Source: Cenococcum geophilum (taxonomy: Eukaryota). From it: a stretch of 64,000 nt of DNA. Of this stretch, positions 17,462-44,600 are shown piece after piece. The stretch covers positions 17,050,001 to 17,114,000 of the forward strand of contig CP158635.1 in NCBI GenBank assembly GCA_050273025.1. The letters run 5' to 3'. Both the position numbers and the translations under genes were made by a program. Within the stretch, counting starts at the first letter, position 1; each line of letters starts with the position of its first letter. A model generated the notes under the pieces. That model was not told the origin of the DNA, made no database searches, and saw only the letters and a program-made list of their open reading frames with translations.

Positions 17462-17577
17462 AAAGATGCCAGCTTAGCTCACCGCCTATCGCCGAGCTAA
17501 TAGCGATTTTCCATCCCGGGGATGGAAAATCCTAATTGGTCCATTCAGCAATAGAGCCGGCAGAACTCTATACCGCC
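17462..17577 (+). other. Conserved palindromic module Y, copy 1
   Basis: Alignable to 23665-23780 and 41948-42065. Contains the hairpin GATTTTCCATCC-cgg-GGATGGAAAATC. Confidence 0.85.
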
Positions 17578-17989
17578 CCTAGAATTCGATAATACACCAG
17601 CTGCATGACGAGAACGGCACCAAGAGCCTTAATTGATTGCATAGATATAGAGCCGGTTGTACGATGCAGAGCTAGACGCAGAGCTGTATGCAGAGCATTG
17701 ATTGAATGACTGCACAGAAGCCACGATCAGCCGTATATAGATGCAGACCTGCGGCCAGCCAAAGAACCGAATCAAGCCAGAGCCTCGACATTAGCACATC
17801 TCGTCCCTGAATCAAATCAGTCAAATATCGTCAAATTAGAGCCTTCGACCGGGCCGACTTTGTTCCTTATTCAAACAACAGCTAATCGCAGCACGACTGT
17901 TACTGCCACCCGAATTCAGCACTGTATTAGCTGCACAACGAGAACAGACGCCGCGATAAGGAAGGGACCTATATAAAGGCAACAGCACG

Positions 17990-18670
17990 ATATCAGTGAC
18001 AAAGCACCGTAGAAATGGTAGAGCAGTATATAAAAAGGCACTGCAAGAGATCGTATATAGGGCACGGCTGACCACGTTAAGCCTAAGCTATCCTTATACG
18101 ACTGAAGACGGGACCGAGCCGTGTCTAGCTGAGCTAGTAAAGGACCTTGTTGAGATTTATAAGGGAAACAGGAATTAGACGTACAGGGGCTAGCGCTTTT
18201 CCTCAGAGGTCGTCTTAATAAAGGACTGTATTGTGGACATAAGGGCAAGGGATATGCGACGGAGGTAGTTATAACAGCCGAGAAGCTGCTACCGGATGGT
18301 TTCGAAGGACGACTTAGACGAAGCATAGAGTCAGTAGACAGCAATTAAGAGACTAGAAGCAGAAAACAATCTTAAGAAGGTTCTTAAGCCGGAAGAAAAT
18401 CAAGGATATGTAAGTGTACTGCCAGTAGCGGGAATAAAGAAGTAGCCGCAAAAGCCTAAGGATGCACCAAAGAAGCCAAAAGTAAGGACGGCTTAGAAAA
18501 GGAAGAAAGCAGCTGTCAAGGACGTCCTATAAAAGCGCTAGGCCTGTTATAGTGGTTCAGAGGAAGCTACCGTTAGTGCTCACAAAGAAGGAAGTCTTAA
18601 GACGGGTCTCTAGATTGGACGTCTAGTAGACACTAAGAGCCCTAATTATACGATGCGGAGCCTTGATTAA
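17990..18670 (+). pseudogene. Unknown ~225-codon ORF inside element C (charged, Lys-rich C-terminus), RIP-broken
   Basis: The frame of ORF 17996-18178 continues to ~18670 through TAG/TAA stops explainable by RIP. Confidence 0.4.
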
Positions 18671-20968
18671 CTGTATAGATATAAGGCTTTAACCAAACGA
18701 CTATGCAGCTAGAGTTTTAATTGATTGTCCGTAGATGCCAAACCTACGGATGCAGAGCCTCGATCGTATATACAGCAGAAGATACCTTAAGTCAAGCTAA
18801 AGCCTCTGTCAAATCCTAATCAGTTAAACGCCGCCTATATAAGTCAAGTCATCAAATTAGAGCCTTCGGTCGGGCCAACCTAATACCCTATTTAAACGTC
18901 AGTCAATTATACGTTGTCACAGTCAAATCAAATGAGTCACCGTCGCCGTCAAACGTCTTCAATCGGCAGCCAAAGATGCATCACCGCAGGCACGCAGGCA
19001 CGCAGGCACTAGACCTAATTAGGAAACCAGTATACGGCTAACAGAACGTCAGAAGCACAGCCAATTAACGTCTTAGAGCCTCTGCGAGAGCCTCTTCCCT
19101 TAACTACCTACCTCCGTATTAATCGATTGCTGCCTGTCTTAACGCCTACGGATTAGTTAACCAAAACAATCTTTCCTACAGATATAGATACGGAGCTTTA
19201 CACAGAGTCTCACACGGAGTCGCATATGGACCCTACGGATATAGAGCATATAGGTGCAGATCCTTAATTGGACAACAGTACGGCAGCTTAACTAGACGCC
19301 TATAAATGCAAAGCCTTAATTAAACGGCAGATGCGGAACCTTAACCGATCAGACGTCTATACGGAAGCTTTAATCAACTATCTACGGATATAGGGCCCCA
19401 GTCGTACATGCAGCAGAAGACACCTTAAGTCAAGCCAGGGCCTCATTAAGTCTAAATCAGCTGAACGCTGTCTCCGCATTTAAATCAGGACAATTAGGGC
19501 CTTCAACCGGGCCGACTTTCTACCTTAATCAAACAACCGAACGATCAGTTGCAGCACATCGTCGCCGACCAATTAGACAGTCTTCGGCCAGCAGTTAAGG
19601 CAGCCATGTACACATACACACAGACACGGACGCAGACATGGACGCAGAATATGCAATATAGAGCTATTAATGCCAGCCAGATGTATAGCTAGACGCGCAG
19701 CCAGACGCACAGCTAGACGCACAGCTAGATGCAGGGCCTGATGCAACGCCACGGATAGAGCCTTAATTAAGAAGCTGCGTACGATGCAGACCGATACAGA
19801 GCTAGATGTAGAGTTTTAATACCAAACGGCAGCGGAACGATCGAGTCAACCCAGAGCCTCTGCTACCTTGATTGGCTGTCCTGCCACCGCCGCTGCTGCC
19901 GCTATTCCGTCCAGCTATTTCGTCCTTACTATCTCAACCGACTGCTATCTCTACCGTCCTAGATTTATACCGCTGCTAGGTCTATTTACTGCTAGATCTG
20001 CTAGATCTATCATGCCGTTCTATACTGCTATTCCAACCAATCTGTTCTACTGCTGCCGACTAGCTGTTCTACCGCTGCCACTACTGCCATTGCTATTCCG
20101 ACTGTTCCGTTCTATTATTCCGATTATTCTACTGCTACCGTTCTTACTAACTGCTACTGACTGACTGCTACCGACTGACTGCTACCGACCGTCTGCCGCT
20201 ACCGAGATTTCTACTACTAAAAGTTCTGCTGCTGGATGTCCTACTGTTTACTAACTGTTACCGAATTCTTCTACCGAGTATTCTACCGCGCTGACTGTCT
20301 GCCGTATTACTATTGCTACTACCGTTACTGTTGCTGCTATTACTGCTATTACTGCTGTTGCTACTGTTACTGCTACCGTTATTGTTTCTAGTTTACTGCT
20401 GTCCTAGTTGCTAGGTTGGATCTTAGCTATAGGTAACGGAGGACGCCGTGGAACAGTTCTATAGGAGGGCTGAGGACAAGGTTACCTGTGTTCTTTTAGG
20501 GGTGTGCTTTCCTTTTTCTATTCTGCTTTTGCTTTACTTTCGTTTAGCTATTCTTCTATAGTATAGAACGTTAGGGGATAACGTTCTTAGTGGGGGAGGT
20601 ATGTAGTGGGGTAAAATGGGCCACTGCTTAGTGCCTTGGCATTTCCTGTATATATTAAGCCTTCGGCTTCTCTCCTTCTCTCGACGACGACCTACCGGAA
20701 TACATTCTTTCCTTTCTTTCTTACTGACTGCTTTCCTACTGATTGATTACGACTGACGACCGACCGACCGACCGACCGACCGATAGACAGACAGCATTGT
20801 GACTTCCTATCTGAGAGGGACCGCGTCCACCACCATACTAGGAATATTATTTCTAGGGCTCCCAAGCCCTTCCTAAAAGCCTTCTAAGGCCTTCCTAAGC
20901 ACCTAATTAAGGTCCTTAATTGCTACTATATATAAGAATAAATCCCAAATACCTAATCTGAAAAGCCA

Positions 20969-21924
20969 CTATGCCTTATCCTCAGGAGTAGGATTAGTAT
21001 CCATCGGCCCTCTAAGGGATGGCTGACGAGAATGAGATCTAGACCCCTTAGTAGGGGTATGAGTAGGCATAAAAATAGGGGTAGGATGATAAGGTGTAGC
21101 TAGGGCAGAGATCCTTAAACGCTTAACACTAATATTAGGTCTAAACTAATACTAATAAAGCTCTTGTGGCGTAAGCTTATAGTTAATAAAGATACGCTTA
21201 AGCCCAGAATAAACAGAGACGTTAGCTGGCTAGTATAGCCCAAAACCACCAAGACCTTGCTACAGCAACTATTAATTACCTATCCGCTAGGTACCTAAAG
21301 GGTAACCTACCTAATACCGCATTATATTATGCTCTTTTAAAACTTAACGCGTATACGCAAACTTCTTCCTATAGTAGACAGCGACCTTCTTCTTATTACC
21401 CCTATCCCGTACCCTATCCTTAGTATACTAACCTTACTCTCGTATTAGGCATTACTGGCTAGCTTACTAGGAATTATGGGCGGTGTAAATAGCTGTGGTA
21501 TAGTCTCAAATTTAACTAAGACATTTAGCATTAGCGCTGGAATGAGACAAAGCCCGGGTAATGTAGTAGTTAAGGACATTAAAGGATTGTTGCCACTTAG
21601 GCCCAGGCTATTAAAGCTTAAAGTTAGCAATGGAAATCTATTAAGGATAGAAAAGCTTACCTTAACGTAACTACTGCTCTTAGTACGCATGCATTAATTA
21701 TAAGAACTAAAGGTATTAGATTTAACGCAGTGCGTCTTATTATAAGCCTCTAGAATCCTGTTATTAGATTTCTGGTCTTTTAAAGACATATAGGCAAAAT
21801 TATTTAGGTAGGACTAGCACTAGTTACAAGTTAGTAAAGGTTAGGGTTCTATATATAAAGGTAGGGCTAGGATACGCTATAGAATCTACTTAAAAGAGCA
21901 GTTAGTAGGAGAACAAAGAGGCAT
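20969..21924 (-). pseudogene. Antisense accessory gene of Gypsy B: Cys-cluster protein with one intron (21608-21660)
   Basis: ATG at 21924. In-frame CxxC...C...CxRCMRTKSGSCVK, then a 53-nt GTAAGC...GCTAAC...TAG intron. Conserved in B copy 2. Confidence 0.65.
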
Positions 21925-22974
21925 ATTAAATTATTAATGGAAAAGAAGAAAATCTTAATAATATATCGAAGATACGTCTAAAATTGGACGAAGGTTAATA
22001 ATGGGAAAGTAAGGTGTTAAGGAAAAGGAGCTGCTTAATAAGCAAAGGTATCCTTATACTTTACTGTCTAATACCCTTCTAGTAAATAGCCGTAACCTTA
22101 CTAATATAACTCTGTTATAATAGCGCTATTTAAAAGAAAAAAAACACGTGTATAAGTTATTTAACTATTACTTCCTTATAAAAACTAACTACGCGGCCAG
22201 GGGAAGGTAATTAAAACGTTAAATTAAAGATATATATAGGTTAAATTAGACCTAAAATAATACTATAGTATTAAAGAATAACGTTATAGACGTTCTTAAT
22301 AATCGTATAATAGTTACAATTACTATCGCGAAATGTCCCTATTTACTAGGTAGTAAAGCTACGCCAAATATACAGCACAAGATTACTAGATTTAAAACCA
22401 TATACACTAAATCTTAAGAGATAAGTCTCTTTAACTAACTAATTAATACCTTAACCGTATTTAATAGCCTAAGGGCAAATATAGGAGTAATGCGTTAGTG
22501 ACGCAGAGGATTATAAGAAAAGGATTATAAGAAAGAATTATAGACTATATTTTAGTAGTTAAAGACAACAGTAAGCTAAGGCTCTATACGTTAAATCCTA
22601 TACTAAAAGGTTCTATAGAACTATACTAGAACACTAAATTGCCTATAATACTTATAATTGATTACAGACCGGCATAAAGGCTTAGAAGCAGAGTTGTATA
22701 AAAATCCCTATATTAGCCTAGGTAGTCACCGGTATACTTCTAGTAAGCTTTTAATAGGTCTCCTAGCAATCCTCACGTCTTTTCTCTAGTTACGTTTTTC
22801 CCTTATTAAGGTTTTTTAGGAGTTTAAAGTAGGGGTTAGATAGATAGATAATATATAGCGGCATACTAATACTTCTCTAATATCTCTCCGAACCTCTTCC
22901 GGGATAAGCCCTTATAATCTCCCTACCGTAAGGTAATAGTAATTGGGGGCCGACTATAAGAAGGGGGGGGGTAA

Positions 22975-23189
22975 TATAAGGGATATTATTGCGGACACCT
23001 TGGGTTGCCCTTAGGACAACCCCTAGACGCCCCTTGGATAGTTGCTAGTCACGTGCTAAAGGCACATGCCCGTAGTATATAGTCTCCACAATCCTAAAGG
23101 CCTTACCTCCTTAAGGATTCGTCTCTCTTACTAATCTATCCTATTCCAATCGTGTCCTTATAGCCCCCTATCTATAAGATCCCCTCACA
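22975..23189 (+). repeat. Gypsy B 3' LTR
   Basis: Matches the split 5' LTR; preceded by a PPT; ends CACA. Confidence 0.93.
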
Positions 23190-23194
23190 TATAT

Positions 23195-24168
23195 AAACTT
23201 GCTATAACCCTTAAAGGGTAAACCTATAACTCGCGAAGTACCACTACTACCTTCCGTAATTATTAATAACGGCAACGGTTCTTATTTTATTAACTTAATT
23301 AATAATATATAATAGAAGATATAATCTAAATAATTTAAACTTCTTATTAAATAGAAAGGATATAAAATATAAACTTAGGAAACCTATAACTAGATTAAGA
23401 CTAATACGCCTTCCCTAGTAAAAGAATTCTATAAGAACTATTCTTTATGGCCTGCTCTAGCTAGATAAATACAATATAAAAGCAAATAATTATTACCTAA
23501 TATAAATACACGAAACATAATAGCAGGAAGCTTGAAATTAAAAAAGACTTAAAATACGTTATAACGTTTATAATATAATTATATAATATATAAGATATTA
23601 AGGAACTTTAACCACCAGTTAAAGTTATTTAATTAGTTAGATCTGCCTTACCAAGACCTACTATAAAGATATTAGTTCTACTTACCGCCTTAACTAAGCT
23701 AATAGCGATTTTCTATTCTGGGAATGGAAAATCCTAATTAGTCCATTTAATAATAGAATTGGTAAAACCCTATACTGCTACCTAACGCGAAAATACAATA
23801 CGCAATAAGTTATAAGTCTTAACTAAAATTAAATTATTTAGACCTTTGGTTAAAAGGGGGGGTACTATAACGGGACTAGCCCAGTTATAGTAGGAATGTC
23901 TTAGTAAAACACTTAACAGATAAATTCCAACGCTTTAACCAAAATCTGCCAGATTAATTAAATTACTAAAGTCCGTTAAAGACCGCGTGCGTATATATAC
24001 ACGCATCAACCACTAAGCCCCTAACTATTTAATTATATAATTCTCTTATTATTCCTTTCTCTTCTTTACGTAATGTCTTGTTCTTAGCGAGAGCTATATA
24101 CCCTTAGATTTAGATAGAATTTATATTATTCCTTTAAATCTTCCCCGAAGTCTCTCCACGCCCTTACA
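23195..24168 (+). mobile_element. Gypsy A 3' end: chromodomain, 3' UTR (modules X and Y), PPT and 3' LTR (23866-24168)
   Basis: Chromodomain-like LLIKW.GY...WE.Y (~23340-23400). PPT AAAAGGGGGGG at 23852-23862. LTR runs T(G)TAAC...TTACA. Confidence 0.8.
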
Positions 24169-24902: not shown

Positions 24903-26505
24903 TATAACGGAATCCCCTAAAAGGTACATATTAGATAAAACAATAGGAGGTTTTATCTATATCCTATTTATATTTTATCTACGTCCTAGAAGACATAGTT
25001 AGATAAATAAGGGGCGAAGGGTTTTACTAGCGTCTTAGAAGGATTATATAGGGAGCTAGTTCTCCTCTAAAGAAGAGCTAGTAATTAGTCTCTAAATAGA
25101 AGAGGTTAGAAAGCATTTATCCTTTATATATAAAGATCGTTCTACCTTAACTTATCTTCTACTTACCTATAACTCTTATTCTATACTATTAATTAAATAA
25201 TTATACATTCTGGTTAAACTGGCCTTTTATAATTCTAATATAAGGGGATCTTATAGACAGGGGGCTATAAGGACACAATTGTAAAACAGAATAGATTAGT
25301 AAGAGAGACGAATCTTTAAGGAGGTAAGGCCTCTAAGATTATGGAGACTATATACTATAGGCACGTGCCTCTAGCACGTAACCGGCGACTATCTAAGGGG
25401 CATCCAGGGGTTGTCCTAAGGGTAACCTAAGGTGTCTATAATAATATCCCTTATATTACCCCCCCCCTTCTTACAGTTAGCCCCTAATCGCTATTACCTT
25501 ATAGTAGGGAGATTATAAGGGCTCGTTCCGGAAGAAGTTTGGAGAGATATTAGAAAGGTATTAGTATGCCGCTATATATTATTTATCTATCTAACCCCTA
25601 CTTTAAACTCCTAAAAAACCTTAATAAGGGAAAAACGTAACTAGAGAAAAGATATAAGAATTACTAAAAGACCTATTAGAAGCCTACTAGAAGTATACTA
25701 ATAACTACCTAGGCTAATATAGGGATTTTTATACAACTCTGCTTCTAAGCCTTTATACTAGTCTATAATTAATTATAAGTATTATAGGTAATTTAGTGTT
25801 CTAATATAGTTCTATAGAACCTTTTAGTATAGGATTTAACGTATAGAGCCTTAGCTTACCATTATCTTTAACTGCTAAGATATAGTCTATAATTCTTTCT
25901 TATAATCCTTTTCTTATAATCCTCTATATCACTAACGCATTACTCCTATATTTGCCCTTAGGCTATTAAATATGGTTAAGGTATTAATTAGTTAGTTAAA
26001 GAGACTTATCTCTTAAGATTTAATATATATAGTTTTAAATCTAGTGGTCCTATGCTATATATTTAGCGTAGCTCTACTACCTAGCAAATAGGGATATTTT
26101 GCGATAACAATTATAGCTATTATACGATTATTAAGAACGTCTATAACGTTATTCTTTAATACTATAGTATCGTTTTAGGTCTAATTTAACCTATATACGT
26201 CTTTAATTTAATATCTTAATTGCCTTCCCCTAGCCGCGTAGTCAGTTTTTGTAAGGAAGTAATAGTTAAATAACTTATACGCGTGTTTCCTTTCTTCTAA
26301 ATAGCGCTATTATAACGGAGTTATATCGGTAAGGTTGCGGCTATTTATTAGAAGGGTATTAGACAGTAAAGTATAAGAACACCTTTACTTATTAAGCAGC
26401 TCCTTTTCCTTAATACCTTACTTTCCTATTATTAACCTTTATCTAATTTTAAATGTATCTTTAATATATTATTAAGATTTTCTTCTTTTCCATTAATAAT
26501 TTAAT

Positions 26506-27464
26506 ATGCCTCTTTATTCTTCTGCTAACTACTCTTCTAAGTAGATTTTATAGCGTATTTTAGCCCTACCTTTATATATAGAACCCTAACCTCCACTAAC
26601 TTGTAACTAGTGCTAGTCCTACCTAAATAATTTTGCCTATACGTCTTTAAAAGATTAGAAATCTAATAATAGAATTCTGGAGGCTTATAATAAGACGTAC
26701 TGTATTAGATTTAATACCTTTAGTCCTTATAATTGATGCATACGTACTAAGAGTGGCAGTTGCGTTAAGGTAAGCTTTTCTATTCTTAATAGATTTCTAT
26801 TACTAACTTTAAGCTTTAATAGCCTGGGCCTAAGTGGCGACGTTCCTTTAATATTCTTAACTACTATATTGCCTAGGCTCTCTTTTATTCTAGCGTAAAT
26901 GCTAAATAACTTGGCCAAATTTAAGACTATGCTATAGCTATTTATACTACCTATAATTCCTAGTAAGCTAGCTAGTAACGCCTAATATAAGAGCAAGGTT
27001 GGTATACTAAGGATAGGGTAAAAGATAGGGGTAATAAGAAGAAGGTTGCTGTCTACTATAGGAAGAAGTTTGCGCATGCGCGTTAAGTTTTAAAAGAGTA
27101 TAATATAATACGTTATTAAGTAGGTTACCCTTCAGATACTTACCGGATAGGTAACTAATAGTTGCTATAGTAAGGTCTTAGTGGTTCTGGATTATACTAG
27201 CCAGCTAATATCTCTGTTCATTCTAGGCTTAAGCGTGTCTTTATTAACTATAAGCTTACGCTATAAAAGCTTTGTTAGTATTGGTTTAGACCTAATATTA
27301 GTGTTAAGCGTTTAAGAGTCTCTACTTTAGCTATACCTTATTGTCCTGCCCCTGTTTTTATGCCTACTTATACGCCTACTAAGGCATCTAGATCCCATTC
27401 TCGTTAGCCATCACTTAGTGGCCTAATGGATACTAATCCTACTCCTAATAATAATAAGGCGTAG
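26506..27464 (+). pseudogene. Antisense accessory Cys-cluster gene of B copy 2 (intron 26770-26822)
   Basis: Homologous to 20969-21924, with the same ATG, Cys codons and splice signals. Confidence 0.65.
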
Positions 27465-30400
27465 TGGCTTTTCAGATTAGGCATTTGTGGTTTAGACTTT
27501 TAGGATTCGTTTTTATATATAGTAGCAATTAAGGACCTCGATTAGGTGCTCGGGAAGGCCTTATAAGGCTTTTAGAAAAGGCTTAGAAGCCCTAAGGACA
27601 ATATTCCTAGTATAGATTAATGAATAGGAATGCAATTCTAGCAAAATGCCCTATTAACTCTATACTATATACGTGAAAAGGCTAAGGACCTATCCTACCT
27701 TAGGCCGTAGCCCTATCCCTATAGTTTCCGAAGCCTGTCTATTCTATATCCAATTTAACCTATTTACTCTTTTCGCGAGCTTTCTTTATAGGTCGCAATG
27801 ACACTATAGTATTAGAGCGCTTTCTATAACTTATAGATTATAGACCTTAGTCTTAATATTCTTTTAGAATATCTTTGTAATAATTAAGGTAATCCTCTGG
27901 TTCCTATATAGAGTTCTTAGTAAGCTAGCCTAGCCATTTAACTTTAAATTAAAGCTTGTTCTTAATAGACTTATAGCGTAGTATAGCTTTAACCTTATAC
28001 TACTCGCCTACTACTTTAGGGTGTTTAATTAGACCTAGACGGAAGTTCTTTTCTAGTAGTAGTCTATACTATAGCTCTAGTAGGTTTATGTAAAATACTA
28101 GATGTATATAGGCTATAGATAGGGGTAGCTAGAGACAATAGGCTAGCTTACTAATTCGTTCCTTAACTTAGAAGGGACCTAGGTATCTTATATTAAGCTT
28201 CTTTAATAGTTAACGGGTTTTAATATTTGTTAAACGTAATAGAACCTTATTGCCTACTCTAAAATGCTTATTCTGGTGCTTACGGTTATACTAAAGTCTC
28301 TACTGCTCTTGGGTATTTTATAGGCTCTGCTTTGCATACTTCTATTACTCCTTCTATTCCTAAAGGTATCCTTATACTTTTTAGTAGATGTCCTTAAACT
28401 TCCCGGTAGGATCCTATAACTAATTATATGGCCTTAGCCAGTAATTATTGGGTATACTATTAAACCTAAATAGTTAGACGCTATAGGTAATCTGGATTAG
28501 TGTATACTTATATAATACGTATTACTTTAAATTATAAGCGTACTCTGTGTATGGAAGTAGCTCGCACTAGTTATCTTACTAGTAGTTTAAATATATCTAT
28601 AGGTAAGACTCCAGTTCCTAGTTCTGGCGTTCCGTTTACCTATCCATCTATAGGTGGAAAGTAGTACTATAATAGTGGTCTATTTTTAAATAGAAGTATA
28701 GATCTAACTAGTACTGGCTTATAAAGACGCTGCCCCTATTAATAATAATAGAGTGTGGCTAATCTACTTTAAGAAAGTATTTCTCCTTAATTAGGTTAGT
28801 AAGCTCTTATATATTAATTATCTTATTAATAGGAAGGTATTGGATGTACTTTAAAAACCTATTAATAAGTATAAGGACCGAATTGTATATTTATCCTTAG
28901 CTATCTTTAGATAGCGGGAGATCCGTAATAAAGTCTATAGCGTAATATTGCTATAGCTTACTGGCGGGGGGAACTAATTTAAGTAGACCCTATAGCTTGT
29001 GCCTACAGATCTTATATACTTAATACTTCTCATAATAGCTAATATACTCCTTTACTTCCTAATTAAGCCTTAGCTAATAGTATTTGCGCTAAAGTAATTC
29101 TACTGTTTTTACTTGACCATAGTGGCCGCCTAGGGGATTATTGTAATTCTTTATAAGAATCTTCTATTGTAGATTTGCTTCTTATAGTACCTAAACCTTA
29201 CTACCTCTATATAGTAGGCCCATCGGGTCTAGTTCCTAATAGTAGCGCCTAGTAGCTTCCTTTTCGTTATATTTCCGGTCTACTTCTATATTAAGGATGG
29301 TATAAAAAGCGTCCCTTTATTACACCTTACGGATAAGATCTATTAACCTTTTAGATAGTTTTTAGGTAAAAGCTATTTTGTCCCATACTACTTTAAGTAT
29401 AAGACTAGATAGTACTATAGATTTTATAACTCTTTAATACGTATATATTAGGAAGGCCGCTATAAGGTTAAAGTTCTTTAGTTATTATAGGGCTCTAAGT
29501 TCCAATTACTCTATAGCTTTATTATTTGTTTAAGGGGATAGCTTAGTAATTAGAGATAGTATATTACTAGGTTCTGAGAATGTATTAGAGACGTCTTATC
29601 TAGGTATATTTAGACCCTTATTAATAACAGACCGGGTACTAGCTAAAATATTAGTGAAAACTAATAGGGCTTATACCGCCTAAGACTTGGTGTATAGAGC
29701 TATAGGTACTTAAGCATCCTATACCCGGAGCTTATTCTGTAATATAGGGAGTAAGATATCTATTATCTATTTTCCTTCTCCCGTTTTAAAGCCTTTAGTA
29801 TAGTCTAGCCGTCGTAACGGTCTATTAGTAGGGTTGTTTTCCCCTAGCTTATATTTAATCTTAAAATTAAATCGCGTAAGCTCCTCTGCCTATTTAGCTT
29901 GTTAAGGTATAAGCTCCTTTATAGTTATAAAGTAGCGTAGATTATAGTGATCTAAGAGTATATAAGTAGTATAGCTCGCGTACTTAAGGTAGTGTCGCTA
30001 CTATTTAAAGTAGTTAACTATAGCCAGCAGTTTCTTATTGTGGGTATAATACCTAACTTTAGGTCCCTGGAATTTTTTATTATAAAATACTACTAGTCTC
30101 TAATAGAGCTAGGTAGCGTCTAGATACCTATTAGGTTGCAGTAGGATACTAATAAGGGCAAAGTTTAATATATTAGTAATTATTATTAATAGCTAATTTA
30201 GGTCGAAATGCCGCAGTAATAGAGCTTCTATAAACTTTGCGCGAAGTTCTTAAAAGGCCTTTTAAACCTTTCCGGGCCATAACCATAGCTTATACTATTT
30301 AGTTAGTCCCTTTTTAGTTTTCTTCCTTACCGCCTTTAAGCTTTTTACTCTTTAGGTCGGGTTTTAAAAAGCTTCTATAATATAGTTAGATAGGTATTAG

Positions 30401-32100: not shown

Positions 32101-32169
32101 CACCTTGATTCGATCGATCGATCGAATCGTTTATCGTGTTCGCTGGCTGGTCGTTCGAACGGTTGTCGT

Positions 32170-32483: not shown

Positions 32484-32649
32484 CTGGCTATCGTTCTGGT
32501 GTCTTCCTAGGTAGGGAGAATGTAAGGAAGGGTAAAAAATGAGGTGGCTACCTAGGTGTATATAGGGGGTATACTTGGCAGAGGCACGTGTAGAGGCTAT
32601 TGGGAATATAGCGGGGACCCGATAGTAGTGTATCGCGCGCACACACAAA

Positions 32650-34205
32650 GGCTTTGTGTAGAGCTTCGTGTAGAGCCTCCGTATGCAGGGCTTCGCGCAG
32701 AGCCTCGTGTAGAGCTTCGCGCAGAGCCTCGTGCAGAGCCTCTATATGTAGAGCTTCGTGTAGAGCTTCGTAGAGCTTTATGCAGAGCTTCGTGTAGAGC
32801 TTTATATAGAGCTTTGTGCAGAGCTTCGTGTAGAGCTTCGTGCAGAGCCTCTGTACGTAGAGCTTCGTGTAGAGCTTCGTGCAGAGCCTTGTGTAGAGCT
32901 TCGTGTAGAGCTTCGCGCAGAGCCTCGTGCAGAGCCTCTATATGTAGAGCTTCGTGTAGAGCTTCGTAGAGCTTTATGCAGAGCTTCGTGTAGAGCTTTA
33001 TATAGAGCTTTGTGCAGAGCTTCGTGTAGAGCTTCGTGCAGAGCCTCTGTACGTAGAGCTTCGTGTAGAGCTTCGTGCAGAGCCTTGTGTAGAGCTTCGT
33101 GTAGAGCTTCGTGCAGAGCCTCGTGTAGAGCCTCTATATGCAGAGCTTTGTGTAGAGCCTCGTGTAGAGCCTCGTGCAAAGCTTCGTGTAGAGCTTCGTG
33201 TAGAGCTTCGTGTAGAGCTTTATGTAGAGCTTCGTGCAGAGCTTCGTACAGAGCTTCGTGTAGAGCCTCGTGCAGAGCCTCTGTACGCAGAGCTTTGTAT
33301 AGAGCCTCGTGTAGAGCCTCGTGCAAAGCTTCGTGCAAAGCTTCGTGCAGAGCTTCGTGCAGAGCTTCGTGCAGAGCTTCGTGTAGAGCTTTATGTAGAG
33401 CCTTTGTACGCAGAGCTTCGTGTAGAGCATCGTGCAAAGCTTCGTGTAGAGCTTCGTGTAGAGCTTCGTGTAGAGCTTCGTGTAGAGCTTCGTGTAGAGC
33501 TTCGTGTAGAGCTTCGTACAGAGCCTCGTGCGAGCCTCTGTACGCAGAGCTTCGTGTAGAGCCTCGTGTGGAGCCTTGTGCAAAGCTTCGTGTAGAGCTT
33601 CGTGTAGAGCTTCGTGTAGAGCTTCGTGCAGAGCTTCGTGTAGAGCTTCGTGCAGAGCCTTGTGTAGAGCTTCGTGTAGAGCTTCGTGCAGAGCCTCGTG
33701 TAGAGCCTCTATATGCAGAGCTTTGTGTAGAGCCTCGTGTAGAGCCTCGTGCAAAGCTTCGTGTAGAGCTTCGTGTAGAGCTTTGTGTAGAGCTTCGTGC
33801 AGAGCTTCGTGCAGAGCTTCGTGCAGAGCTTCGTGCAGAGCTTCGTGCAGAGCTTCGTGCAGAGCTTCGTGCAGAGCTTCGTGCAGAGCTTCGTGCAGAG
33901 CTTCGTGCAGAGCTTCGTGCAGAGCTTCGTGCAGAGCTTCGTGTAGAGCCTCGTGCAGAGCTTCGTGTAGAGCCTCGTGCAAAGCCTCTGTACGCAAAGC
34001 TTCGTGTAGAGCCTCGTGTAGAGCCTCATGCAAAGCTTCGTATAGAGCTTCGTGCAGAGCTTCGTGCAGAGCTTCGTGTAGAGCTTCGTGTAGAGCTTCG
34101 TGTAGAGCTTCGTGCAGAGCCTCTGTACGCAGAGCTTTATGTAGAGCCTTGTGTAGAACCTCGTGTAAAGCTTCGTGTAGAGCTTCGTGTGGAGCTTCGT
34201 GCAGC
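32650..34205. repeat. 12-bp minisatellite array (AGAGCTTCGTGY)n with periodic 15-bp variants, ~1.55 kb
   Basis: Visible; explains the (HEAL)n, (CRAS)n and (RAEL)n ORFs. Confidence 0.95.
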
Positions 34206-36716
34206 GCTTTATGCAGTTTTATGGTATTTTTATTACATTTTTATTGCATTTTTGTTGCAGCCAAAAATTAGGGTCTGCTTAAGTCGCTTAAGTCGCAATT
34301 TTAGCAATTTACATAAAGTAGCCTGCAAATCGCTGCAAATCGCCGCAAATTGCTAAAATTGCGACTTAAGCGAGTTAAGCAGACCCCAATTTTCGGCTGC
34401 AATAACGCGCCCAAAAAAAAAAATCCTAATGTACCGTTTTATATAGTAGCTAGTAAAGGGTAGGGAAATCCTTAACGTAGCGCTTAAGATGCTGTAGCAT
34501 ACTCTCTATATATTACTTAAGCTAGAGTAACCTATAACGGTTAAAGTATCTCATAAGATCCTTAAGATCGCTACCTCCCTATAATATCTCTGCGACCTAT
34601 CTAGCAGTTCCCTATAAGGTCTCCGTTATAGAGGGGTTATTACCTATACTAGGCTTTATACCTATCTTGTTATTAAATAGGGGTTAGATCCGATACTCCT
34701 TTGGGTATAAAGCGTATACTATTTTGCCTAAGGCTATATTCTCTAAGATATCTTTTAGGCTTATTAGTAATATACGCCCTTCTAAATCTTTATTATTCCA
34801 CCATTTAAAGGCTCTAGTTTTAAAGCGTATTTTAGGATCTACTTCTACCAGCTAAGGGTATTTAAGGATAAGGTTATAACCTACGAAGTTAGCCGCCTAG
34901 AAGGGTTGCGGGCTGACTACCTTAGTGCGGTTATATATATTAGCCACTAATACTATAAGCTTATAGGCACTGTATAGCTTAATTTAATACTTATCTAGGA
35001 AGCCTATAATAGGTTTCCGCTACCTTTATAATAGGATAAGTTTATACTCTTTTACTAAATTATATTATATAAGATTAATTTTAGCGCTGCTGTCGTATAG
35101 TGCTTAGAACTGTCGTATCTTACCTATAGGGAGTGTTATTTTTAGCTTAACAGCAATATAGAGAGTCTTTCCTTCTGTATCTTGCCCTAGTTACAGCTAG
35201 GAGAGGTCCGCAACTAGGGCTTTTCTTTTTTTAGGTTGTTAGTGCAATTATCACCCAACTTATTCTTCTAATAAGATTTACCTTTAGGGAAATTTCCTTT
35301 TAGCTTCTTAGAGTATTTCTATAAGGGTATTAAACAGGTATCGGGTTGGCCTTAGGAATCTTTCCCATTACTTAGGGCTCCTAACTTTAATCCTTCTAAA
35401 GTTCTCCTTAAGAACGGCTTCTTTAAAGCTTAGGTCTGCCCTATATTACTACTAAAATGCCCACGTTTTTAGTTACCCTTTAGCTTCCTGCTAGAAGAGG
35501 TCTAGTTCCTTACCATATCCTTAGCGTTTAGAACCGCTCGTTTAAAATCCGCATATACAGTAATCCACAGTAGGGCTCCTACGCGCTTTATTTTATCACG
35601 AATTACTAGCTTAATTTTAGCCCAGATAAATTTAATCTTCTCCTTTTTACGGATACTGCCGTCCTTATTTTTAAAGGGCTCTAAATCCATCTATTAAGTA
35701 CGAGTTTCTATAAAGTTTATAAACTAGTGGAAGTCTTAACGGTCCAGCTGCGTACCATTCTAGAATTGTTTTATATTGTTATATTATATAATATATAGAT
35801 CTTAGGTCCAACCCTTTAGGAAGGTCTATAGCTATAGCCATATTATAATTTGCTCTTTATTAAGTTAATTAAGCGCGATCTAGTTTAGTAATCGGTCTTT
35901 AATCTTACTAATAATCTAGCGTGTACGCTCTTTAGTATTATCTCGTATTATTAGCATCTTAAAAAAGTTATTTACCTCGCGAACCTAATTGTCTAGCTAT
36001 TGGGTATTAGGTCTATAACGAAGTTCTAAACTATCGGAGGCCTTAGCTAGTCGGTCTATATCCTTTTTCCGTTTATTACATAAGTGCCTCTCTAAGTCTT
36101 TTACACCTCCTTAGGTAGGTACTAAGTAGCCCCTAAAAAGCCCTTAGCCTTAACTAGGTTATAAAAAAATTTACCTAGCTTAGATTAAACCTTACTAGAT
36201 ATAGATTTGCCCTTAAAAGGTTCTAATATATTTATTAGTGGCTTCCTCCTATATAGCTTCCAAGAGCCTTATAACAGCTTCCCGATATCCATCTTAAAGG
36301 AGATTAGTATAGGGCTCTTAACCTTCTAAACTTAGGCCTAAGGAAGCTCCTACTATAGAGGTAGTATTAGCACTAGTAGCTAGTGCGGGTTTCCCAATAA
36401 GCCTTAGGTCTTAAGTTAGTGTTTAGGTTTAGTTTTCTAAAGGGGTAGGCCCGTTTAGCTCGTAAGTAGTCTATATACCGCCACTATACTAATTATAGGC
36501 CGGTGGTCTTCCGGAAGGGTTCTGGTTAGGTCCCTAGTTAAATGCGTTAGTATATTTCTCTAATATTTCTAGCTTAGGGGAAGATCTTAGGGTTACCTCT
36601 AGCGCTTAATCTTCTAATTAGCCTAAGTAGGGTTAAAGGGGTTCCGGTTACTTTCTGGTAGCGTTATAACCGTTATAGAGGGTATCTACGTTTTCCTTAG
36701 TGGTAACTATAGGTGT

Positions 36717-37325
36717 CTCTACGACTCCGAAAAAACAGGCCAAAATGAGGCACCGTGCGCACCCCACTAAAACAACCCCTAATTTCAAAACAAAACACCA
36801 CAACACCACCAAATCAACACTAAGTTTGCTTGTTTAAAGCCTAAATTATGGCTCGCATTTAAGAGGAACCCAGATATCGCAAATTCCGAGCTAAGCACTA
36901 TACCCCTCCACCAGAATTGCTCTATAAGGCCAGGGAAAACAAGCACCTAGATACTCCGTCCCGTGCTACTATTTTTGCTACTAAAGTAACCACTTAGTAC
37001 CTGGGCAAGTCTCTTACTTCTGCTCAACTTTATAAGATTACTAGGGTCCCTAAGCGTATGTAATTCCAAATTCTGGCTTCTAACTAATGTCAAACGTTGC
37101 ATTTTACGGATATTTGGGATAATTAATTGGGCCAGGAGCAAATTGCAGAGTACTATAATTGGTATATAAAGCGCTTACACGAGTGCAAGAGGGCAGATAG
37201 GCAGATGACCCGATATTAAGTTGTATTTGTATATAATATTTAATGTTTTAAAGCATGAGATTTCGGTGTTGTAAGGGGTGATACGCACGTGCCTTATTTC
37301 GGCCTGTTTTTTCAGAGTCGTAGAG
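36717..37325. mobile_element. 609-bp MITE
   Basis: TIRs of at least 37 bp (CTCTACGACTCYGAAAAAACAGGCCRAAATRAGGCAC). Flanking duplication GGTGT at 36712-36716 and 37326-37330. Absent from B copy 1 near 8260. Confidence 0.9.
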
Positions 37326-37859
37326 GGTGTATAAGAGTCTTTAAGCTCCTAAAGCATCTGGGTATTAGGGCTCGTTTGGCCATCTTGCCTAGAGGGTTAT
37401 ATTATCGTAATCTCTCGCTATTAAAGGGACCTTCCTGCTTTTGCGCGACGGCTTTCTATAAGGTATCTATAGAGTTTCCATTTAGGTCGTCGCGAGATTT
37501 TAAGGGAGGATAGTAGCTATAAATAAAAGATGTAAATAAACAATCTGGTCCTTAAAGCCGACTACCCTTCTAAAAAAGAGTAGGAAGGATTTAAATGTAA
37601 GGGGATCTTATAGATAGGGGGCTATAAGGACACGATTATAAAACAGGATAGATTAGTAAGAGAGATAAATCCTTAAGGAGGTAAGGCCTCTAGGATTGTG
37701 GAGACTATATACTACGGGCACGTGCCTTTAGTACGTGACCGGCGACCATCTAAGGGGCGTCTGGGGGTTGTCCTAAGGGCAACCTAAGGTGTCTATAATA
37801 ATATCCCTTACATTTAATCACTTATAATCCTTTACAGAAGGAACGTACGGCTATTGATT

Positions 37860-40800: not shown

Positions 40801-41580
40801 GCGTTATTAGAACACTACCTCCGCTACTATATTAATTATTAATAGAATAATTAGATATTATAGTTAGCTTTAGCGCAATACGTATATAATATAAGCATCT
40901 ATAGTAGTATAAAAATAACCCCTTATAAAGCATTGTTTGGGGTAAAAGTAAATAACCCCTAGAATGTTAAGGATATCGTTCTTAAAAGGGAGGCACTAGT
41001 AGCGTTTAAAAGAATTTGTAAAGAAAAACTTAAAAAGTACTTACTAGACGCCCAGGCTGTATAAAAAATGTACTATAATAAAAAAATATATACCAAAAGA
41101 ATTTAAGATAGAAGACGAAGTCTTACTATTTATAAAAAAAATCTAAATAAAACGTATTAAGAAGAAGCTGGATTACTAGTAGCTTAGACCCTTTAAAATA
41201 GTTAGGAAAACTAAAGGAAATTAAGCCTATAAATTAGAATTGCCGAAATTATATCTAATATATCCTATATTTTATATTTTCTTACTAAAGCTATATTAGA
41301 GAAGAGATAGTGCGGAACTACTACCCCTTAATAAAAATAATAGGGAACTAGAATAGAATATAGAAGATATTTTAAACTAAAGATAGTGCTAGAAAAAGCG
41401 TAAATTCTTAATCTGTTGGGAAGGATACTCCTAGGCGCATAACAGTTAAGAACCTAAGGAGCACCTTTAGCCAAGATATAATACGGCAATTAAAACCTTC
41501 CTAAGGACTAAAGGTAAAAATTTAATAACAGTTCTGGATATACCACAAATAAGACAATAGGAAAGACCCTATAAATTAAA
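37860..41580 (+). pseudogene. Gypsy E gag-PR-RH-IN-chromodomain, RT apparently deleted, RIP-inactivated
   Basis: CCHC knuckle (C)YNCGKKG(H)IKRFC (~38935), IDSGAT (~39135), RNase H HP.AF.SRK...Y.THD.ELL (~39330), integrase (~40280-40950), chromodomain FLI.WEGYS...N..EP (~41400). Confidence 0.85.
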
Positions 41581-41671
41581 ACTATAAGGTTAAGCACAGG
41601 CATTAAGAATGGAAATATTTTGCTATTATAATAGGGATCCTAAAATCCTATAAGGGGAAGCCTATAGAATC

Positions 41672-44600
41672 TGTCACAGTGCTGTAATAAAGTAGACTGA
41701 ATAACTACGTTATAGTATAAAGAGGGGAAGAAGGTGGAAAGGGGGTATTATATATAAATAGTAGGGCCGGCCGCTAAGTCGCTAATAGTAGGCTAGCTAA
41801 TAGTAGGAAATAGTATAAGACAGTATAAAACAGTATACGTTAGGTTAGTGCCGTAACAGTACTCCTCTCCCTTAGATAGTTTAGTCCCTAAACTAAATAA
41901 ATAACTTAAAAATAGGCAGTATATAGGGTTGCCTATTTTTTACCACGAAGATATTAGTTCCGCTTACCGCCCTTAACTAAGCTAATAGCGATTTTCTATA
42001 CTGGGCATAGAAAATCCTAATTAGTTAGTTTAGTAAGTAAGGTTGGCAGAACTTTATACCGCTACCTAAATCGGTCCGTGTGGCGTTTCTTGGCAAGAAT
42101 TTAGCTAATTAAATAACTTTAACCGCCGGTTAAAGTTCTATAATATCTTAACCACCATAAATTTTAATACGGTGGTCGGCCGTAACCTTAGCGTAACTTT
42201 TCCTTATCTTATACCTAGTCTAGGGGTCCTAGCTTCTTAGGGTGTTACTTATAAAAACGCTATATAGCTTATTTATAACCCTTTAGGTCTTCCTCTAGCT
42301 GCTAGGTTATATCCTTATAATATTTCCATTTAATCTTATAAGTTAGGCCCTAGGGGTCTTCGTTATATACATTAAGGATTTTCTTAAACTCCTATTTATC
42401 TTCTATGTTGCCGTTGTTATCTCTCTCTACCACTCGTCCTTATACATTACGGCGCTCTATAATATTAATATTTGCTTAGCTAGGGATCTCTTTAGTAGCC
42501 TAGAGGCGGACCTTAGATATATAAAAGGATTTGTTTACTTAGATGTGGTCTAGGAGGTCTACTATAACTGCCCCTTAGTATACTGCGAGTACGGGGTATA
42601 GGCCGTCCCATTTATTGTCCTATTTCTTCTTAGGTTTATTTATCTTTATATTTTCTAAGCTAACTATAACTATATCGCCTTTATAGAATAACGCGCTCTT
42701 ATCCCTATAGGTATTAGCATTATCTTTATAGCGTTGCTATAAAATCCAGGCTAGGGCCTTAAGCTATGTTAATATTTGCTTAAAGCGGTTGGCCACAGAG
42801 TCTACGTAAAAGAACTCCTTCTTTGCTTATGCTAATAGTGTTAGTAGGTAGGGGCTAGTAGGCTTAATTCCGAGGTAAGGGTTAAAGCTATAGTTTATAA
42901 AAAATGGGGAGATGCCTATACTCTTATTGACTTGGTTATTTATAGCAAACTTAGTAAGCGGTAGGTAGTTAACCTAGTTATCCTATATAAAGCTAATAAA
43001 AGCATAGAGGTATTTATTTACGGCAGCGTTAATAATTTTAGTTTGGCCGTCCGTTTCTAGGTGCTAGGCTAAGCTTAGTTATAAGATTGTCTTAAGGCGT
43101 TTACTTAGTTATTACTAGAAGTCGCTAATAAATTATATACCGCGATTAGAAATAATCGTATTTAGTACACTATAGAGCTTATATATGTTATTAATAAAGC
43201 TATTAACTAGCTCCTCTATTAAGAGTCCTATTACTAAAATGAGGTATTATATTTTAGTTAGGCGGTCTATAATAATAAGGATATATTTATATACCTTACC
43301 GTGGCGTTAATATACCGGCAGTGTTATAATATAGTTAATTAAGATATTGGTCTATGGGCGAGTAGGTAATTCTAGTGGCTTTAGGAAACCGGGCGGGGCA
43401 GAATAAGGGGTCTTAGTGCAAAAGTATAGGGCACAGTTTTTAATAAAGGTAGCTATAAACTAGGAGATTCCTAGCTACCAGTATATTTAGTTTAAGAGGT
43501 TAAGAGTCTTAACCTAGCTAGAGTAACTAGTGGGGCTACTACTATAAGAGTAATAGGTAACTTCTAGGCAGAGGTCTAGGGCGTTAGGGACGAAGAGATG
43601 TTAGCGGAAGTAGATCTATCTATTAATGATACTACATTCTAACTTATTACAACGGAGTAATTTTCTAATCTTCTTTAGCTAATAGCGAGCTTTCCGATTA
43701 TATAGGGCTGCTACTATATCTTTTACAAGTTTGTTCTCCTAGTATCCTAGCTAAATTAACTTATTTAGTAACTTTTTAGCTATTTTAGGGTCTAGAGCGG
43801 CTACGAACTCTATATTGTTAGAGTTATAGGACTTATATAGTAATTCTTCTAAAATTATAGGGTTAACTTTCTAGGGCGGTATAACGACTTAGGCTTGGTG
43901 GCGGAGGCGTTTGTTATTAGCGTCCTTAGGCCTTATTCCTAGTAGCCGGCTTAGGGCGTTAGGGAGTATAGCTTTACTGCTGGGTCTGTATATAATTACA
44001 AAGTTAAACTATAAAAGGAACTCTGCCTACCAGACTTAGTACTAGTTTAGCTACTTAGTAGTTATAAACGTCTATAGGTTCTTATAGTCGGTAATAATTT
44101 TAAACGGCTCCTTAGTCCCTTATAGCTTAGGACGCTATTTCTCTAAAGCCTTAATAATAGCTAAGAGTTCTTTATTATAGATCTTGTAGTTACACTCTAG
44201 TATAGAGTGCTTTATAGAGAAGAATGCGACCGGTCTTAATTTTCCGTTATTATTATACTAGGAAAGGACTCTACTAGAAGCCTAATTTAATACATCTATC
44301 TCTACTATTGTTTTCTTCGTATAGTTATAGTATACTAGTACTGGTGCTGAAGTAAAGGCTCCCTTAAGGGCCTTAAATGATTTAGCTTGTTTTAGTCCCC
44401 ATAGCTATCTAATATCCTTCTTTAGGAGTTTTATTATAGGTATAGCAATAGCAGAGTAGCCTTAGATAAATCGTTAGTAGAAGTTCGCGAAGCTAAAAAA
44501 TTGTTATAGTTCTTTAATTAATGTTAGGTCCTTTTATTCCTATAAGGCCTATACCTTTTTAGGGTCCATAGTTATACTATTAGTTAAGATAATTAAGCTA

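Follow-up and report, generated by a model that had tools for sequence, protein, structure and literature searches.

How does one palindromic module come to be carried by three different LTR elements within a single stretch of fungal DNA, and does it act as RNA, as DNA or not at all? The question arises from an initial annotation of the window (the whole 64,000-nt stretch of Cenococcum geophilum DNA analysed here), which had noticed a module, Y, in elements C, A and D, sense in the first two and antisense in the third, and had read it as a unit exchanged between retroelements.

Copies of the cassette in the window

A nhmmer profile built from the three module Y copies and run over the whole window matches where the module had been annotated (17456-17590, 23658-23791 and 41941-42076, each on the + strand), and no fourth full copy was found with it. 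A covariance model (R1) gives one extra match in the window, weak and core-less, at 41773-41826. By whole-window self-BLAST, the modules of A and D are 84.4% identical over 122 nt (E = 5e-27), those of C and A 86.9% over 61 nt (E = 5e-12) and those of C and D 79.5% over 83 nt (E = 1e-8). The three copies differ mainly by C>T or G>A transitions, and the copy in element C carries the fewest RIP mutations. Module Y is one variant of a cassette with a total length of 70-125 bp, laid out as a 70-nt common block (105-125 nt with flanks), with a 47-nt core that is near-invariant across copies except for RIP transitions. The element annotated as A is called chromovirus E below, and the features concerned are:

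14354-20835, + strand: element C, with 234-bp LTRs and a gag with a CCHC knuckle near 16658-16702
17455-17585, + strand: cassette, Y-type, of element C; core at 17495-17541, sense to C's gag
23334-23441, + strand: chromodomain-like C-terminus of the pol of E, read from the translation, with Pfam giving no match
23591-23656, + strand: module X in E, another conserved linker block, which lies just upstream of the cassette and contains a palindrome with 10-bp arms
23658-23790, + strand: cassette in the 3' linker of chromovirus E; core at 23697-23743, sense to pol
23852-23873, + strand: PPT (23852-23862) and start of the 3' LTR of E (from 23866), which resembles the start of D's LTR
41672-48585, - strand: element D, a Ty3/gypsy chromovirus, with a 5-bp TSD (GATTC) and a PPT at 41862-41873
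41773-41826, + strand: core-less relative of the cassette's left flank, within D's LTR, adjoining a TATA-like box
41940-42074, + strand: cassette in the 3' linker of chromovirus D; core at 41980-42026, antisense to D
42088-42150, - strand: module X in D, in the same orientation to pol as in E, with the adjoining cassette inverted

Judged from its predicted proteins, D is a Ty3/gypsy chromovirus: its pol, with an apparent end near 42215, resembles Ty3 Gag-Pol (7q5b, E = 4.7e-63; 4ol8, E = 4.4e-42, query 38-487), and its integrase matches, at query positions 630-835, come after RT-RNase H. Its chromodomain, a reading of the translation without a Pfam match, is putative; Pfam scans of read-through translations returned no retroelement family even on clear pol, gag and chromodomain stretches, so that their silence is uninformative. 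The two LTRs of D (187 bp each, 41672-41858 and 48399-48585) lack the palindrome core. As D is a minus-strand element and its cassette lies on the + strand, this copy is antisense, and the orientations first given for all three copies are right. The pol of E, of which an earlier part lies at 8-1513, is interrupted by nested insertions ending at 23197, and the 23.7-kb copy follows its chromodomain-like end on the + strand. In element C the cassette is found ~750 nt downstream of gag, and pol was not detected between 14354 and 20835.

The flanks of the module had been described as otherwise unrelated, which does not apply to E compared with D: a 66-nt block, X, is 83% identical between them (23591-23656 against 42150-42088, self-BLAST), and the PPT/LTR start is homologous too. 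The orientation of X relative to pol is constant between D and E, whereas Y is flipped. An in-place inversion between D and E was ruled out, the linkers on either side being different.

Hosts of the cassette and exchange between them

A metagenome scan, with a search pattern that fixed 35 of the 47 core positions, yielded at least 121 further loci, and 133 copies were aligned in all. The context is readable in 75/133 copies. Every one of these placeable copies is outside the LTR and within 450 nt after the projected end of pol; those in copia elements comprise 51 antisense and 5 sense copies, those in gypsy elements 11 antisense and 8 sense copies. The placeable copia-hosted copies are all (56/56) 60-273 nt downstream of the pol C-terminus. 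The cassette occurs once per element, in the linker from the pol stop to the 3' LTR. The purine run downstream of the GalEa pol stop had suggested a location of the core in the U3 of the LTR; flank constancy and separately found LTRs rule this out for all placeable copies. One GalEa subfamily has the same pol-side flank in 23/24 copies, with the LTR (~180 bp) found separately and then the CHSeq1 motif, and in one gypsy class X adjoins the cassette in 12/12 copies; in these groups, as in D, the cassette core does not belong to the LTR pair.

The cassette is carried by several LTR-retrotransposon families that are unrelated to one another, in an ascomycete lineage with active RIP: Ty3/gypsy chromoviruses (D, E and others), PBS-less GalEa elements of the Ty1/copia superfamily, and the gag-only element C. 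The GalEa assignment is read from published motifs, the missing PBS and a Conserved Hairpin Site (CHS) after the 5' LTR. The pol motifs that the accessible parts of the 2017 description of GalEa elements list (QTDD, KSRLVI, CQPEA and ADxxTK; PMC5445492) are all readable, in RIP-altered forms, in the host pol P0001, and a true CHS lies right after the 5' LTR in four loci (L036, L063, L067 and L069). A PDB sequence search with the GalEa pol gave no match, Pfam likewise none, and the protein Atlas gave only an RVT_2 lead for a stop-free 97-aa GalEa piece. The window holds a GalEa element of its own, B, which is 35.7% identical to P0001 over 1027 aa and has a complete true CHS at 1781-1806. Neither the nhmmer profile nor the covariance model finds the cassette in its 3' linker, and the cassette is therefore not essential for the GalEa clade.

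The discrete unit recognized by the initial annotation is indeed common to different LTR elements in both orientations, and its exchange extends even to Copia and Gypsy. When class consensuses are corrected for RIP and compared over 69 columns, the copia and gypsy versions are separated by 4 transitions and 0 transversions; for sense against antisense versions within copia the figures are 2 and 0. As the copia and gypsy versions show no transversion over 69 nt, the cassette has moved between the superfamilies. Its core is identical across families whose pol proteins are 27-41% identical or belong to different superfamilies, whereas the sequence just outside the conserved blocks has diverged by transversions; conservation in Y is block-wise.

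Pairing in the palindrome

The palindrome is real and longer than the 12-bp stem first described: it extends over ~20 bp in two helices that carry two one-base bulges, and its hairpin loop, CCGGG, includes the self-complementary CCGG. Windows of 56 nt on the core have folding z-scores of -2.5 to -5.9, whichever strand is folded; for the whole 131-nt module of C the values are -2.4 on the + strand and -3.8 on the - strand. The 133-copy alignment has 2526 pair cells, of which 97.5% are standard pairs; shifting the partners by 1-3 columns lowers this share to 28.6-55.2%.

The claim of covariation had rested on the N:N' pair, which is C:G in the copy of C, T:A in A and A.C in D. Correcting D for RIP was sound, A.C being a RIP derivative of G:C; the T:A of copy A, taken as a compensatory change, is the RIP product of C:G. 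Over the whole alignment, pair 44:50 occurs in two states, the first comprising CG (60 copies), UG (8), UA (3) and CA (3), and the second GC (8), AC (22), AU (18) and GU (10), with one gap; pyrimidine:pyrimidine or purine:purine combinations occur in 0/132. Both states are present in at least seven flank classes. Covariation is seen at one pair, C:G versus G:C with their RIP derivatives, and at no other stem pair: the remaining stem positions are invariant or show RIP-only changes, partly because of the core positions fixed by the search pattern. By the conservative measure, covariation in this larger alignment is not significant, pairs changed on both sides numbering 2 against 1.8 in shuffles and being reached by 400/500 of them. 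The covariation score is 0.130 versus 0.096 in shuffles and is reached by 0/500, to be read with 35/47 core positions fixed by the pattern. A single event followed by recombination could also account for the spread of the two 44:50 states, and conversion between the two arms of the palindrome would produce such a pattern even if pairing were not selected. On inspection, reverse complementation does not interconvert the two loop-closing states, and they were rejected as flip/flop forms.

Possible action as RNA or as DNA

Tentatively, we consider the cassette most likely to be a stem-loop acting in the element's genomic RNA or first-strand cDNA. As such it would serve as a cis element at the 3' end, recognized by one factor that both superfamilies use, and the step concerned may be 3'-end handling, RNA fate or a stage of reverse transcription. 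The palindrome would give a near-identical hairpin from either strand, which we propose as the reason why either orientation is tolerated; it probably originated by fold-back duplication of a U3-like block with a CCAAT motif. RNA-library contigs from three runs span 41980-42022; they are unstranded and not proof of transcription, run on into GC-rich flanks unlike the window, and have C at the RIP sites 41997 and 42002, as in un-RIPped cassette versions. Several features count against the RNA reading: primary sequence is kept beyond pairing, with only one covarying pair; the asymmetric flank motifs kept in both orientations fit DNA-level recognition better; and the left flank is homologous to a block beside the TATA-like box of D-family LTRs.

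A close rival to the RNA hairpin, possible although on balance somewhat unlikely, is an orientation-independent enhancer, promoter-like or anti-silencing module that derives from a U3 promoter and whose double-stranded form is a binding site for dimeric or CCAAT-type factors, perhaps with the fungal HAP/CBC complex as candidate CCAAT binder. It is the whole asymmetric cassette that keeps its sub-motifs in either orientation, not the palindrome alone, and the left flank with its CCAAT motif recurs without the palindrome by the TATA-like box of D-family LTRs and at other loci too. Tandem GGCAGAAT-type motifs and further palindromes, X included, cluster around the cassette, and in flank classes (2,5) and (0,4) it sits in units of only 250-700 bp that have TATA-like boxes close by. 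The guess that CTAATT(G/A)G after the stem conceals a reverse CCAAT box stands in part: ATTGG is intact in 44/133 right arms, and CTGATT(G/A)G is read in 3/9 copies outside the pattern-fixed set, of which 4/9 have CCAAT in the left arm. The accessible text on Sirevirus LTRs describes similar repeated palindromic motifs, located 5' of the TATA box, which its authors regard as regulatory (PMC2829016). A DNA-level module is, however, harder to reconcile with the placeable copies, 75/75 of which are outside the LTR and 5-6 kb downstream of the 5' LTR promoter. The RNA-library contigs, whose alignment to the window starts at 41980 and which are otherwise RIP-free, appear to have CTAAT and not CCAAT in the left arm, and appear from the alignment to read ATTGG in the right arm; a perfectly linked C:G/G:C switch is also unexpected if two half-sites are selected independently.

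It is unlikely, in our estimate, that the cassette is a functionless passenger, that is, a by-product of fold-back or strand switching by RT or a hotspot of recombination. As such it would be carried along in 3' linkers that tolerate it, spread by template switching between co-packaged RNAs and owe its conservation to recent transfer and concerted arm evolution. Left and right flank classes do assort as a mosaic around the core, left class 0, for example, being combined with 10 right classes; some variants lack the core and others have two; GalEa element B does without the cassette; and the copy differences are nearly all RIP transitions, which fits a recent common origin. A passenger would nevertheless have to keep an identical core in hosts as divergent as those above, while its neighbouring sequence diverged by transversions, and a constant linker position in all 75 placeable copies; the block-wise conservation in Y suggests selection. 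An autonomous MITE-like or solo-LTR-like insertion targeting retrotransposon tails is hardly credible: the ends of Y are sharp and identical in five different contexts and a 5-nt direct repeat, ACCGC with its RIP variants, brackets 25/25 parsed copies, but this 5-mer is the same in every context and is therefore part of the unit or a fixed target and no variable TSD, TIRs are absent (by eye, AAAGAT... at one end is no inverted copy of ...CTCTAT at the other), G-type cassettes have other outer limits than Y, and 0/75 placeable copies lie outside a retrotransposon linker. The known MITE with its own TSDs that the initial annotation had considered is thus not what we find, and a solo LTR with TGT...ACA ends was rejected as well, since the C/G-richest copies read otherwise and the TGT and ATA forms arose from C/G-richer states by RIP.

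The stem-loop that we favour has a partial counterpart in the CHS. The accessible parts of the 2017 paper describe the latter as a conserved hairpin in the non-coding junction of PBS-less GalEa elements, which make up to 10% of one fungal genome; its 9-mer CHSeq1 (CTGATCAGT or CTAATTAGT) forms a stem with CHSeq2, which lies at a distance of 12-41 nt, and an A/A mismatch of nt 7 of CHSeq1 and nt 3 of CHSeq2 is invariably kept; distant families of some species share a conserved 'extended CHS' of 33-62 bp (PMC5445492). Measured against that account, the cassette is likewise a conserved non-coding hairpin of GalEa elements common to distant families, and its right arm, CTAATT(A/G)G(T/C), is near the two CHSeq1 forms. 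It differs in lying after pol and before the 3' LTR, whereas the CHS directly follows the 5' LTR, in having arms 25 nt apart with two single-base bulges and no A/A mismatch, and in occurring in Ty3/gypsy too and in either orientation. Identity with the CHS was rejected on the position after pol and the missing mismatch, and the core strings have no match in the text supplements of PMC5445492. One cassette arm is complementary at 8/9 positions to the un-RIPped CHSeq1 form of L069. It is conceivable, though quite improbable, that the cassette is a portable 3'-end hairpin acquired by Copia and Gypsy for a host factor or a replication step, whose arm may pair with the CHS in GalEa elements; such pairing might circularise the genomic RNA or aid the start of reverse transcription.

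That the module matches no ribozyme core, as had been remarked, agrees with the Rfam scan (hammerhead, twister and HDV included): Rfam 15 gave no match at gathering score in the window and none at E<=5 in 17300-17750, and on six loci only two sub-threshold matches to miRNA models, away from the core. Inspection by eye showed no convincing complementarity of Y to the 3' end of a tRNA or to the PBS region of D. Retroviruses carry the dimer initiation site (DIS) in the 5' leader; another of their cis-acting stem-loops, the constitutive transport element, recruits a host factor and lies in the 3' UTR of retroelement genomic RNA. Like these, the cassette is a long imperfect hairpin with a small loop; it lies after pol, unlike the DIS, and no sequence or Rfam similarity to either was found. 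Neither is known to be shared across superfamilies or to be orientation-independent. The discussion of PMC5445492 mentions the DIS. Sharing of a conserved 3' UTR stem-loop by LINEs and SINEs, as given in the accessible text of PMC5135761, also places the same 3' structure on unrelated mobile elements; it serves one reverse transcriptase, whereas the partners of the cassette each encode their own unrelated pol. The accessible text on Sireviruses (Bousios et al, 2010; PMC2829016) describes palindromic RM boxes and a PPT-flanking inverted repeat, read as cis-regulatory. These too are highly conserved palindromic non-coding motifs common to very divergent LTR elements, some copies lying outside the LTR, upstream of the 3' LTR. 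As described there, they are short CGG-CCG boxes in many tandem copies, mostly in the LTR upstream of the TATA box and confined to one plant Copia genus, in contrast to a single 47-nt palindrome per element that lies outside the LTR, crosses superfamilies and is found flipped.

Conserved non-coding hairpins and palindromic boxes are already known inside single retrotransposon lineages. A near-identical cassette in the same linker of Copia and Gypsy elements that works either way would, if true, suggest a host-facing function or a general replication step, swappable between superfamilies as a module, and the cassette would document cross-superfamily recombination of retroelements. Pairing of its arm with the CHS, if true, would supply a partner for that unexplained site and a lead on how PBS-less GalEa elements handle their RNA ends. 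The core also provides a compact marker by which these families can be recognized in fungal DNA degraded by RIP.

Module copies and their host elements in the window

The initial annotation had described a ~115-bp palindromic module (module Y, in our analysis with a 47-nt core) at one site each in elements A, C and D, and an nhmmer profile of these three copies matches those three alone in the window. The cassette covariance model R1 adds one match in the window, a weak core-less relative at 41773-41826 inside the LTR of D. Among the three copies, C>T or G>A changes, as produced by RIP, account for most differences, and copy C carries the fewest mutations.

Pairwise BLAST of the module copies within the window
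A versus D: 84.4% identity over 122 nt, E 5e-27
C versus A: 86.9% identity over 61 nt, E 5e-12
C versus D: 79.5% identity over 83 nt, E 1e-8

The architecture of the window, reconstructed from self-BLAST and tblastn, is one of nested, RIP-degraded LTR retrotransposons with a GC content mostly of 30-45%.

Elements discussed in the text
8-1513: earlier pol part of chromovirus E
1510-7783: element B, a GalEa-type (PBS-less) Copia, with pol at 4286-7234
14354-20835: element C, with 234-bp LTRs and a gag with CCHC knuckle
41672-48585, minus strand: element D, a chromovirus with 187-bp LTRs and the 5-bp duplication GATTC

The read-through pol of D resembles Ty3 Gag-Pol (7q5b, E 4.7e-63 in a PDB sequence search), with RT/RNase H preceding integrase and, in our reading, a chromodomain-like motif at the C-terminus. 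Pfam returned no matches for read-through translations (X at stops) of the RIP-degraded pol, gag and chromodomain stretches; as the PDB search still recognised the Ty3 pol, this silence is uninformative for RIPped elements. In D, the module sits antisense to the element, with the apparent pol end (~42215) on one side and the PPT (41862-73) on the other. The 23.7-kb copy (copy A, 23658-23790) is not part of the large gypsy element, which stops at 23197. It comes after a chromodomain-like pol terminus (23334-23441) that belongs to another chromovirus, E, in agreement with its earlier placement in a 3′ UTR, and a PPT and the start of an LTR, resembling those of D, come next. In element C, where no pol is detectable over 14354-20835, the module lies ~750 nt past gag. 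Judged from the surrounding pol or gag, the module is thus sense in E and C and antisense in D, as originally proposed.

The elements are nested: E (8-1513 and 23198-~24100) is split by 1508-23197, i.e. B plus the large gypsy element (7776-23197, 220-bp LTRs), itself interrupted by C. The large element recurs in inverted orientation at 25237-37814, and this copy contains a GC-rich (53-56%) tandem-repeat block (32165-34216), in which many self-matches overlap and either strand has long open frames, e.g. 32764-34356 (530 aa). A 329-bp direct repeat (92%) occurs at 24905-25233, between the LTR region of E and the inverted large element, and at 60572-60900.

The flanks of the module, initially held to be unrelated, are related in A and D, where a 66-nt block, X, adjoins it. 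X carries its own palindrome with 10-bp arms and keeps its orientation relative to pol in both elements, while the module beside it is flipped.

A portable cassette in the pol-to-LTR linker of Copia and Gypsy elements

Scanning metagenomes with a core-derived pattern gave at least 121 loci. With nhmmer we found 130 copies in the loci listed, which with the three window copies makes 133, a lower bound; since 35 of the 47 core positions were set by the pattern, their conservation is partly circular. Among the loci listed, full Y is present in 25 copies in five different flank contexts, and ~105 share the inner 70-100 nt only and have a different conserved left flank, here termed G-type. Using tblastn with the D pol and with P0001, a pol of copia type taken from locus L071, we placed 75 of the 133 copies, all within 450 nt downstream of the projected pol C-terminus; the remaining 58 come from short loci or lack a neighbouring pol.

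Orientation of the 75 placed copies relative to pol
Copia-hosted: 51 antisense, 5 sense
Gypsy-hosted: 11 antisense, 8 sense

By their sequence, we classify the copia hosts as fungal GalEa elements: P0001 has RIP-altered forms of all four GalEa motifs listed by Donnart et al. (PMC5445492), and the ~180-bp host LTRs, which occur separately from the cassette, are followed by CHSeq1, which belongs to the Conserved Hairpin Site (CHS). For the GalEa pol, Atlas gives an RVT_2 lead, and Pfam and PDB searches were without match. Element B, whose pol shares 35.7% identity with P0001 across 1027 aa, has a complete CHS directly after its 5′ LTR (1781-1806: CHSeq1, an 8-nt spacer and CHSeq2 with an A/A mismatch); the cassette is absent from its 3′ linker (~270 nt).

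X also occurs in GalEa linkers, between pol end and core in L037 (~3124-3146), and its palindrome AACTTTAACC...GGTTAAAGTT lies between pol end and cassette in L037, L008, L081, L093, L096, L100 and L118; X is therefore a second linker block common to both superfamilies.

Membership of the cassette in the LTR was rejected for the copies that could be placed. In one GalEa subfamily the pol-side flank is common to 23 of 24 copies, with homology extending 3 kb on the pol side versus ~330 nt on the other; X adjoins the cassette in 12/12 copies of one gypsy class; and the core is absent from the LTRs of D. Two small classes, (2,5) and (0,4), have the cassette in short units of 250-700 bp near TATA-like boxes. 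Class (2,5) has another long hairpin ~200 nt from the cassette (L119:519-602, L084:523-600), which scores below threshold against miRNA-precursor models (32.3 bits versus a gathering score of 93).

The proposal that the module was exchanged between retroelements is borne out by near-identical cassettes in GalEa and gypsy elements, in both orientations and with mosaic flanks. Over 69 columns of RIP-corrected class consensuses, GalEa and gypsy versions differ by 0 transversions and 4 transitions, and antisense and sense GalEa versions by 0 and 2; farther outward, the consensuses differ by 6-10 transversions in 23 columns, and the host pol proteins either come from different superfamilies or, within gypsy, share 27-41% identity. 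Around the core, the classes of left and right flank form a mosaic. On these grounds the asymmetric cassette is a unit that was moved and inverted, which goes beyond the mere orientation ambiguity of a palindrome.

With R1, the G-type left flank and CCAAT motif are found without the palindrome in L076 and L014, and the same combination sits beside a TATA-like box in D-family LTRs (window 41773-41826; L028, L059, L019). These core-less relatives suggest that the palindrome originated by fold-back duplication inside a U3-like block. Clusters of GGCAGAAT-type motifs in tandem, together with a TTGGCAGA(N)TGCC-type palindrome, lie beside cassettes and core-less relatives (L036, L084, L011, L015, L014:427-499, L076:940-1000), in an arrangement resembling binding-site arrays.

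Hairpin pairing, arm motifs and RNA libraries

In the 133-row alignment A2, 97.5% of 2526 cells are paired in a two-helix structure, versus 28.6-55.2% when partners are slid by 1-3 columns. With the internal loop, which RNAalifold also closes, the structure comprises 20 pairs and two one-base bulges. Folding z is −2.5 to −5.9 for 56-nt core windows on either strand, and −2.4 and −3.8 on the two strands of the full 131-nt module in C. An Rfam search matched no family, in line with the earlier failure to recognise a known ribozyme.

The loop-closing pair is the sole informatively variable pair of the alignment. Its counts read as a C:G state (CG 60, UG 8, UA 3, CA 3) and a G:C state (GC 8, AC 22, AU 18, GU 10), each accompanied by its RIP derivatives, besides 1 gap; same-class combinations occur in 0/132 cells, and each state is present in at least 7 flank classes. 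This pattern confirms the earlier reading of the position in the three window copies, but it is confined to this single pair, whose history may be that of one event disseminated through recombination, or of arm-to-arm conversion. The number of pairs with a change in both partners is 2 versus 1.8 in shuffles (reached by 400/500), no better than shuffles. One GalEa subfamily has two cassettes in tandem ~100 nt apart (L047:2976-3167, L068:1214-1405, L076:2876-3067), the upstream copy having CCAATGG and the C:G state, the downstream copy the G:C state.

Nine secondary copies, not selected by the pattern, have CCAAT in the left arm in 4/9 and CTGATT(G/A)G in the right arm in 3/9. Since RIP removes only C and G, such C/G-richer forms are probably older, and they would make a palindrome containing a pair of inverted CCAAT pentamers.

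The stretch 41664-42664 is present in 20 of 24 listed runs (14 coded studies), 6 of the 20 being RNA libraries, with small shares each. We compared contigs from three RNA runs (X15-X17) and one DNA run (X1). RNA-library contigs span 41980-42022 and continue into GC-rich flanks unlike the window; with alignments starting and ending there, a left arm CTAAT and a right arm ATTGG are implied. At RIP site 41997, C makes up 42-89% of contig depth in the RNA runs versus 6% in X1 (mostly T), and at 42002 76-100% versus 80%, the RNA-library contigs being strandless and possibly including DNA, and the samples differing. This hints that un-RIPped cassette-bearing elements are transcribed and that the expressed copies may be a non-RIPped minority.

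Possible roles of the cassette

We tentatively favour, short of an even chance, a nucleic-acid hairpin that works in the genomic RNA or cDNA. Three points speak for it: the cassette keeps a constant place in the linker, its pairing survives a double transversion, and either orientation is tolerated, as a palindrome explains. Close behind, though somewhat unlikely in our estimate, comes a regulatory module at the DNA level. It draws support from the CCAAT pentamers, from flank motifs that are conserved whichever way the cassette points and from its kinship with an LTR block that is promoter-proximal; the position outside the LTR counts against it. We give lower odds to a passenger or recombination by-product, and a MITE-like element seems very improbable.

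Among described features, the GalEa CHS (PMC5445492) comes nearest: it has a 9-mer near-identical to one in the right arm of the cassette, but lies at the opposite end of the element and has a defining mismatch that the cassette lacks. As a conserved non-coding palindrome, the cassette has its nearest analogue in the Sirevirus palindromic boxes and the PPT-flanking inverted repeat (PMC2829016). Our literature search returned no description of a cassette common to Copia and Gypsy linkers, which may exist elsewhere. Overall, these data show a conserved, portable and hairpin-capable cassette in the pol-to-LTR linker, common to both superfamilies and present in both orientations, which on the favoured hairpin reading would act as a nucleic-acid structure in the genomic RNA or cDNA.
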